Below are positions 10,399 through 10,567 of a stretch of 12,667 nt of DNA, piece after piece. The first letter of the stretch is position 1, and the number at the start of each line of letters is the position of its first letter. A model generated the notes under the pieces. The model was not told where the DNA came from. It did not search any database and saw only the letters and a list, made by a program, of their open reading frames with translations. The translations under genes were made by a program, and so were the position numbers. Origin of the DNA: Nanobdellota archaeon. Its GTDB lineage: Archaea > Nanobdellota > Nanobdellia > SCGC-AAA011-G17 > JACPNG01. The stretch is from positions 1 to 12,667 of the forward strand of contig JBBSWJ010000002.1 of the NCBI GenBank assembly GCA_038046345.1, in the 5' to 3' direction.

Positions 10399-10454
10399 GT
10401 AGGATTTGTACTTTTTCTTATCGGGCCTGTAGCTCAGCTTGGTTTAGAGCGCTG

Positions 10455-10481
10455 AATTCCACTATTTTTTGGAATGTGCAA
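10455..10481 (+). other. tRNA intron 1 (27 nt, non-canonical position 29/30)
   Basis: Outer helix AGA(10446-48)/TCT(10483-85); central helix GCGC(10449-52)/GTGC(10476-79); bulges TG|A and AA|G; inner helix ATTCCA(10456-61)/TGGAAT(10470-75). Confidence 0.88.
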
Positions 10482-10489
10482 GTCTTATA

Positions 10490-10521
10490 TGATCTACCAA
10501 GCTATATCTTAGATTTAAGAG
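10490..10521 (+). other. tRNA intron 2 (32 nt, canonical position 37/38)
   Basis: Central helix CTTA(10484-87)/TAAG(10516-19); bulges TA|T and AG|A; inner helix GATCTA(10491-96)/TAGATT(10510-15). The outer helix is the anticodon stem. Confidence 0.9.
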
Positions 10522-10567
10522 AGCCAGAAGTCGGGAGTTCAAATCTCCCCAGGCCCATTTCATAATC

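Follow-up and report, generated by a model that had tools for sequence, protein, structure and literature searches.

Which tRNA reads the isoleucine codon AUA in this archaeon, and can a locus that is interrupted twice around its anticodon encode it? Most archaea read AUA with a tRNA-Ile2(CAU) that carries agmatidine made by TiaS. For the window, by which we mean the whole analyzed stretch of 12,667 nucleotides, an earlier note had proposed a different solution, namely a tRNA-Ile gene that is hidden by two bulge-helix-bulge (BHB) introns and carries the anticodon UAU once both are removed. Our analysis leads to the same gene: the locus is very probably the only AUA-reading tRNA of a Woesearchaeota-type (DPANN) archaeon, a tRNA-Ile whose UAU anticodon is encoded in the genome itself ('tRNA-Ile3', PMC8450103). 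Such a tRNA-Ile(UAU) would replace the TiaS route, in which C34 of tRNA-Ile2(CAU) is converted to agmatidine. The genome assembly comprises 821 kb in 35 contigs with a G+C content of 34%, and is 97% complete with 0.03% contamination. Proteins closely related to one encoded in the window are filed under Candidatus Woesearchaeota, Candidatus Nanoarchaeia or Nanoarchaeota archaeon.

The Rfam tRNA model (RF00005) matched the locus with 46.3 bits (E 2e-7, gathering score 29) over model positions 1-71, leaving an insertion of approximately 70 nt unaligned within the anticodon arm. Three exons and two introns were delimited (Table 1). Exon 1 contains the 5' acceptor strand GGGCCUG, the D-arm, G26 and the nucleotides C27, U28 and G29, and exon 3 comprises A38, GCCAG, the variable loop AAGUC, the T-arm, the 3' acceptor strand and A73; a terminal CCA is not encoded in the genome. 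A TATA-like box lies upstream of the gene, and a similar one with equal spacing was read from the sequence ahead of the neighboring tRNA-Glu (10567-10575). The box TTTATATAA is probably an archaeal promoter.

Table 1 Features of the tRNA-Ile(UAU) locus and its neighbor in the window
Feature	Position in window	Strand	Description and basis
TATA-like box	10390-10398	+	TTTATATAA; approximately 29 nt upstream of the mature 5' end; read from sequence
tRNA-Ile(UAU) gene	10423-10557	+	Rfam tRNA match
Exon 1	10423-10454	+	tRNA positions 1-29; Rfam alignment, orthologue alignment and pair counts
Intron 1	10455-10481	+	27 nt; non-canonical site 29/30; bulge-helix-bulge motif
Exon 2	10482-10489	+	tRNA positions 30-37, GUCUUAUA; invariant in 14/14 orthologues
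Intron 2	10490-10521	+	32 nt; canonical site 37/38; strict hBHBh' motif
Exon 3	10522-10557	+	tRNA positions 38-73; sequence, Rfam alignment and pair counts
tRNA-Glu(UUC), neighbor	10600-10674	+	ARAGORN and Rfam

Archaeal BHB motifs consist of two 3-nt bulges on opposite strands with a 4-bp helix between them, and are cleaved after the second base of each bulge. Both introns have exactly these 3-nt bulges, the 4-bp helix and the splice sites after the second bulge base. At intron 1, the central helix is formed by GCGC (10449-10452, tRNA positions 24-27) and GUGC (10476-10479) with one G.U pair, the bulges are UGA (U28 G29/A) and AAG (A A/G30), and the inner helix is a perfect 6-bp duplex of AUUCCA (10456-10461) and UGGAAU (10470-10475). 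At intron 2, CUUA (10484-10487, C32-A35) pairs without any mispair with UAAG (10516-10519), the bulges are UAU (U36 A37/U) and AGA (A G/A38), and the inner helix comprises 6 bp (10491-10496 with 10510-10515). The spliced product has 76 nt and an anticodon arm of CUGGU-CUUAUAA-GCCAG. Its 7-nt loop reads C32 U33 U34 A35 U36 A37 A38, including U33 and a purine at position 37. Removal of both introns therefore yields the anticodon UAU, which lies within exon 2 (10486-10488).

The minimum-energy fold of the intron 1 stretch is exactly the BHB shape, both alone and within the whole precursor. For intron 2, the minimum-energy fold of the anticodon arm plus intron is one register off the canonical BHB, and in the fold of the whole precursor the D-arm is paired with intron 2 in place of the intron 2 BHB. 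Hence, thermodynamics alone do not prove the BHB motif of intron 2, and it is the comparative data that do so. A C/D-box guide RNA within intron 2 was also considered on reading the sequence and ruled out, as this intron lacks a D box and is not long enough.

For this comparison we searched the DNA of 40 relatives, many of which contain the gene, and extracted 14 full-length genes from 14 genomes, that is, from 13 relatives and the window genome. The motif CTTATA at positions 32-37 and the intron at 37/38 occur in all 14 orthologues, the intron at 29/30 in 8 of them, and some are interrupted by extra introns elsewhere (D-loop, variable region or T-loop). In the six of the 13 relatives' genes that are devoid of intron 1, the sequence CTGGT or CCGGT runs uninterrupted, which confirms the junction predicted for intron 1 of the window gene. 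Across the 14 orthologues all four stems of the cloverleaf pair, and 98.3% of the cells in the spliced cloverleaf and the central helix of intron 2 are paired. Eleven pairs show compensatory changes on both sides, a number that none of 500 shuffles reached, and pairing falls to 25-49% when the partner columns are slid against each other. The split anticodon stem shows U-A/C-G exchanges, and for intron 1 the central helix shows pairing in 94% of the cells, with G-C/A-U exchanges at position 26. Judged from this alignment, the pairing and the compensatory changes exclude chance. The proposal that two BHB introns hide a tRNA with a UAU anticodon is thus borne out by two motifs that are conserved across the orthologues and by the spliced loop CUUAUAA. 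The genomic context is often shared as well, with tRNA-Glu(UUC) located just downstream of the orthologue in several relatives (L003, L005, L007, L013 and L020).

The earlier note had warned that standard tRNA scanners may miss or mis-call this gene. In its default mode, ARAGORN reported only the neighboring tRNA-Glu(UUC), which it placed at 10599-10675, and no tRNA at 10423-10557, and with intron search it called the locus tRNA-Lys(ctt) with one 48-nt intron. ARAGORN therefore missed and misnamed the gene, and the warning holds at least for this program; automatic annotation will overlook or misname it. That the locus is indeed a tRNA-Lys(CUU) interrupted by one long intron, the reading implied by this output, can practically be dismissed, because the supposed anticodon loop CTTAGAT sits inside intron 2, is unconserved among the orthologues and is not flanked by a bulge-helix-bulge motif, because CTGGTCTTATA is unbroken in orthologues without intron 1, and because the genome already possesses a tRNA-Lys(CUU) (C11:45994-46068) and a two-intron tRNA-Lys(UUU) (C15:9414-9531).

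The body of the spliced tRNA is of the isoleucine type, as had been read from its acceptor stem. The acceptor GGGCCUG/CAGGCCC and A73 are common to tRNA-Ile(UAU) and the tRNA-Ile(GAU) of the same genome, and the two spliced tRNAs share 80% identity, compared with 50-71% between tRNA-Ile(UAU) and 13 other tRNAs of the genome (68% for the elongator-type tRNA with anticodon CAU). The tRNA-Ile(GAU) gene (G000:C11:54454-54573) is itself disrupted by two BHB introns, one at 27/28 (32 nt) and one at 37/38 (13 nt), and is named Asn(gtt) by ARAGORN. In 344 long open reading frames, AUA accounts for 41 per 1000 codons and 47% of the isoleucine codons. An AUA-reading tRNA-Ile(UAU) is a major tRNA under this codon usage and not a minor one, and since AUA is the commonest isoleucine codon here, the gene would be essential for the translation of almost every protein.

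Disrupted tRNA genes are found elsewhere in this genome. The tRNA-Lys(UUU) (G000:C15:9414-9531) has introns at 30/31 and 37/38 and is named Arg(ccg) by ARAGORN, tRNA-Arg(UCU) (G000:C3:597-745) has three introns (D-loop, approximately 28/29, and 37/38) and was missed by the ARAGORN and Rfam scans, and in tRNA-Phe(GAA) (G000:C27:1838-1945) the T-loop itself is interrupted by an intron. Within the 16S-23S spacer, the tRNA-Ala(UGC) (G000:C5:42275-42331) ends abruptly in its T-loop behind GGGTTCGAA; a long intron or a split gene could account for this. A Val-like tRNA body with 21 nt between the anticodon-stem strands (G000:C8:7975-8061) is read by ARAGORN as Ser(tga), which implies a C at position 33. 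None of the methods used here recovered the full set of expected isoacceptors. Several are missing, further Leu and Pro tRNAs among them, and these may be heavily disrupted, split, or located in assembly gaps.

The intron 2 core (10496-10503, ACCAAGCU) and the D-loop region within exon 1 (10436-10443, AGCUUGGU) show perfect complementarity to each other, and this pairing is used in the minimum-energy fold of the whole precursor described above. A Watson-Crick match of at least 6 nt (6-8 nt) between the intron 2 core and the first 26 nt was present in 9 of 37 distinct tRNA-Ile(UAU) genes (the window gene, L002-L004, L006, L086, L091, L095 and L097), compared with one of the 37 genes for a match of this length to the 3' exon. 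Genes with an extra upstream intron showed the D-arm match in 6 of 11 cases and genes without such an intron in 3 of 26 cases, in a sample that is small and consists of related sequences. As the BHB motif at 29/30 borrows the D-stem bases 24-25, intron 2 may stabilize an alternative fold of the precursor. Its pairing with the D-arm may hold the precursor in a fold that presents both splice sites, which we regard as a lead and not as a result.

The earlier note had suggested that this lineage may decode AUA without TiaS. TiaS was sought by one Pfam domain only, TiaS_FLD (PF08489). This domain had no match in the six-frame translation of the window genome, in 41 genomes of the order (25 families), or in 151 genomes that were evenly sampled from the phylum and are each at least 90% complete; all four archaeal control genomes were positive. 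In agreement with that suggestion, the entire phylum, as represented by these 151 genomes, appears to lack the TiaS/agmatidine route. TilS was also not found in the genome, where the sole PP-loop match was below the model cut-off and NcsA/TtuA-like.

The search of the genome for a second tRNA-Ile(CAU) recovered only two tRNAs with this anticodon. One is the initiator (C21:12092-12251), which has the A1:U72 pair and several introns. The other (C11:10939-11012) is intron-less, and its acceptor GCCUCCG is unlike that of the Ile tRNAs, so it was read as the elongator tRNA-Met. A third CAU tRNA was not found by genome scans of the 35-contig assembly, in which D- and T-loop introns are present. An HMM of the T-arm plus acceptor left no unexplained T-arm in the genome, and scans for D-arms and for CAU stem-loops gave no further CAU candidate. 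The individual scans differ in what they can detect: the CAU stem-loop scan, with or without a canonical intron, is blind to non-canonical introns and returned only the known elongator-type tRNA while missing the initiator; loose acceptor-pairing scans produced hundreds of false positives and zero new tRNAs; a 14-nt HMM of the 5' end, a model that is too short, had no matches; and an Rfam scan of about half of the genome at the gathering threshold revealed no additional tRNA and missed several of the introned ones. Given the D- and T-loop introns and the isoacceptors that are unaccounted for, a tRNA-Ile2(CAU) that is heavily disrupted, or that falls into a gap of the assembly, may have escaped these scans.

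This incomplete tRNA set, together with a TiaS search that is based on a single domain model, leaves some room for the view that the UAU gene is a decaying or unexpressed relic and that AUA is read by another tRNA or with the help of an unrecognized C34-modifying enzyme. We consider this very improbable, because the gene is conserved across the order with compensatory changes, because the pattern of a UAU tRNA matches once per genome in 71 of the 151 phylum genomes (see below), because a TATA-like box lies at the usual distance, and because AUA is the commonest isoleucine codon in a genome in which no spare CAU tRNA was found.

Transcription of a functional tRNA-Ile(UAU) would start from a TATA-type promoter of the gene itself and yield a precursor of 135 nt. 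EndA would then cut the BHB introns at 29/30 and 37/38, RtcB would join the three exons, the CCA-adding enzyme would finish the 3' end, an archaeal/eukaryal-type IleRS would charge the tRNA with isoleucine, and U34 would pair with the A of AUA. The genome encodes RtcB (565 bits), IleRS and one EndA, a single open frame of approximately 180 aa (G000:C32:1525-2067; L080:1246-1788) that contains the N-terminal and catalytic domains and matches PF01974 and PF02778 as well as TIGR00324 (121 bits). A second EndA subunit or paralogue was not found by phmmer among all open frames. With approximately 180 aa, the enzyme has an alpha4-like size, and EndA of the alpha4 type is usually strict about canonical BHB motifs. 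Only one EndA gene was found, yet the tRNA genes of this organism have introns at 27/28, 29/30 and 30/31 and in the D- and T-loops. Either a divergent EndA partner has escaped detection or the single-unit EndA has a broad specificity. Among the candidate modification enzymes, the genome encodes a full-length Elp3 (592 bits), to which the earlier note had drawn attention, as well as TruD, Cbf5 and an NcsA-like protein (thiolase).

The decoding of AUA by an encoded UAU anticodon is not new, since such cases have been published for Nanoarchaeum equitans, Korarchaeum and ARMAN. In a 2018 survey of 167 archaeal genomes, tRNA-UAU was present in only two. Nanoarchaeum equitans, which we take to belong to the same GTDB class as the window genome, and Korarchaeum resemble our case in that an encoded tRNA-Ile3(UAU) replaces tRNA-Ile2(CAU); they differ in being single published genomes, compared with a phylum sample of 151 genomes here, and the window gene carries an extra non-canonical intron. 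Both N. equitans and Korarchaeum cryptofilum possess tRNA-Ile(UAU) and no tRNA-Ile2, and in Korarchaeum the UAU tRNA contains an intron and its GAU sister does not, the two being nearly alike after intron removal (PMC8450103, PMC6000648), just as the two spliced tRNAs of the window genome resemble each other. A further close case is that of the three ARMAN lineages, which have tRNA-Ile(UAU) but neither tRNA-Ile(CAU) nor a TiaS homologue (Fujishima et al. 2011, PMC3239211). There, the pre-tRNA-Ile(UAU) contains a 25-nt strict BHB intron at 37/38 that was cut in vitro by the ARMAN-2 endonuclease (PMC3239211). Like our organism, ARMAN (Ca. Micrarchaeum/Parvarchaeum) are DPANN archaea with a UAU anticodon, a strict hBHBh' intron at 37/38, no tRNA-Ile(CAU) and no TiaS; they belong to a different phylum, the window gene has a second intron at 29/30, and the ARMAN-2 endonuclease is a three-unit epsilon2 enzyme, whereas a single unit of approximately 180 aa was found here. 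Having two introns is only a small departure in a lineage in which tRNA genes often carry several. Compared with the TiaS/agmatidine system based on tRNA-Ile2(CAU), AUA is likewise read as isoleucine, but the anticodon is encoded as UAU and no TiaS was found in the phylum sample. Among the papers searched, none dealt with TiaS and DPANN in the context of AUA decoding, or with agmatidine and Woesearchaeota and their relatives.

What is new here is the phylum-wide comparison of intron retention between the UAU and the GAU isoacceptor. The pattern we searched for demanded a UAU loop, an intron at 37/38 whose end forms the BHB helix, and a correctly spaced T-loop; the reversed pattern served as control. 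The patterns are rigid, so that all counts of this comparison are lower bounds, and the genomes are related to one another. The intron-containing UAU pattern yielded one match in each of its 71 genomes, compared with 5 matches of the reversed control. Without the intron, the UAU pattern matched in 2 of the 151 genomes versus 6 control matches, which is at noise level, so that at most two genomes have a UAU gene without the intron. For tRNA-Ile(GAU), 42 of 81 genomes matched the intron-less pattern, at least two of them by chance (one such match being at C32:7501-7531 of this genome), and the pattern with a 37/38 intron matched in 3 of 81, although it misses the 13-nt GAU intron of this genome. 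These figures suggest that the 37/38 intron of tRNA-Ile(UAU) is kept almost universally and that its GAU sister is mostly intron-less, and the contrast is very large.

In eukaryotes, tRNA-Ile(UAU) has one of the most conserved introns, and Pus1 needs this intron to form Psi34 and Psi36 (PMC4090602, PMC12530127). The eukaryotic tRNA and the one described here share the UAU anticodon, a very widely retained 37/38 intron, and the need to read AUA and not AUG. They differ in that splicing is carried out by the archaeal BHB endonuclease and that no gene of the TruA/Pus1 family was found here: PF01416 had no match in the window genome, whereas it was found in 13 control genomes, and the Pus1/TruA enzyme that would act on the precursor in a PsiAPsi system of the eukaryotic type was accordingly not found. 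Any intron-dependent modification enzyme would therefore have to be a different one. We know of no action of TruD or Cbf5 at tRNA positions 34 or 36. The contrast between the UAU and GAU genes, and its match to the observations in Korarchaeum, ARMAN and eukaryotes, make an intron-dependent modification of the anticodon plausible, albeit at rather low confidence. We tentatively propose that in this phylum the 37/38 intron of tRNA-Ile(UAU) persists owing to a maturation step that requires the unspliced precursor, the likeliest step being a modification of U34 and/or U36 that blocks the reading of AUG; this would be an archaeal counterpart of PsiAPsi that uses a different enzyme.

A competing account, to which we give a limited but real chance, accepts the tRNA as genuine and holds that its U34, being unmodified or pairing broadly, can read AUG as well as AUA, with some isoleucine at methionine codons being tolerated, or with AUG being rejected by the ribosome as in Mycoplasma mobile. 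In that bacterium, U34 of tRNA-Ile(UAU) is unmodified and reading of AUG is prevented by the ribosome (PMC3575796), and the lack of a detected TruA/Pus1-family pseudouridine synthase in the genome points in the same direction. However, the intron next to the anticodon is retained almost universally in the UAU tRNA and not in the GAU isoacceptor, which speaks for some activity on the precursor. In addition, the genome encodes Elp3, TruD, Cbf5 and the NcsA-like protein, any of which could modify U34 or adjacent nucleotides.

The reading of AUA with an encoded tRNA-Ile(UAU) had been known from only a few archaea, and the present data extend it to a broad phylum sample of Woesearchaeota/Nanoarchaeia. 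The intron contrast between the UAU and GAU isoacceptors provides a testable lead on how an archaeal U34 anticodon avoids AUG, and on why eukaryotes and these archaea both keep the intron at 37/38.
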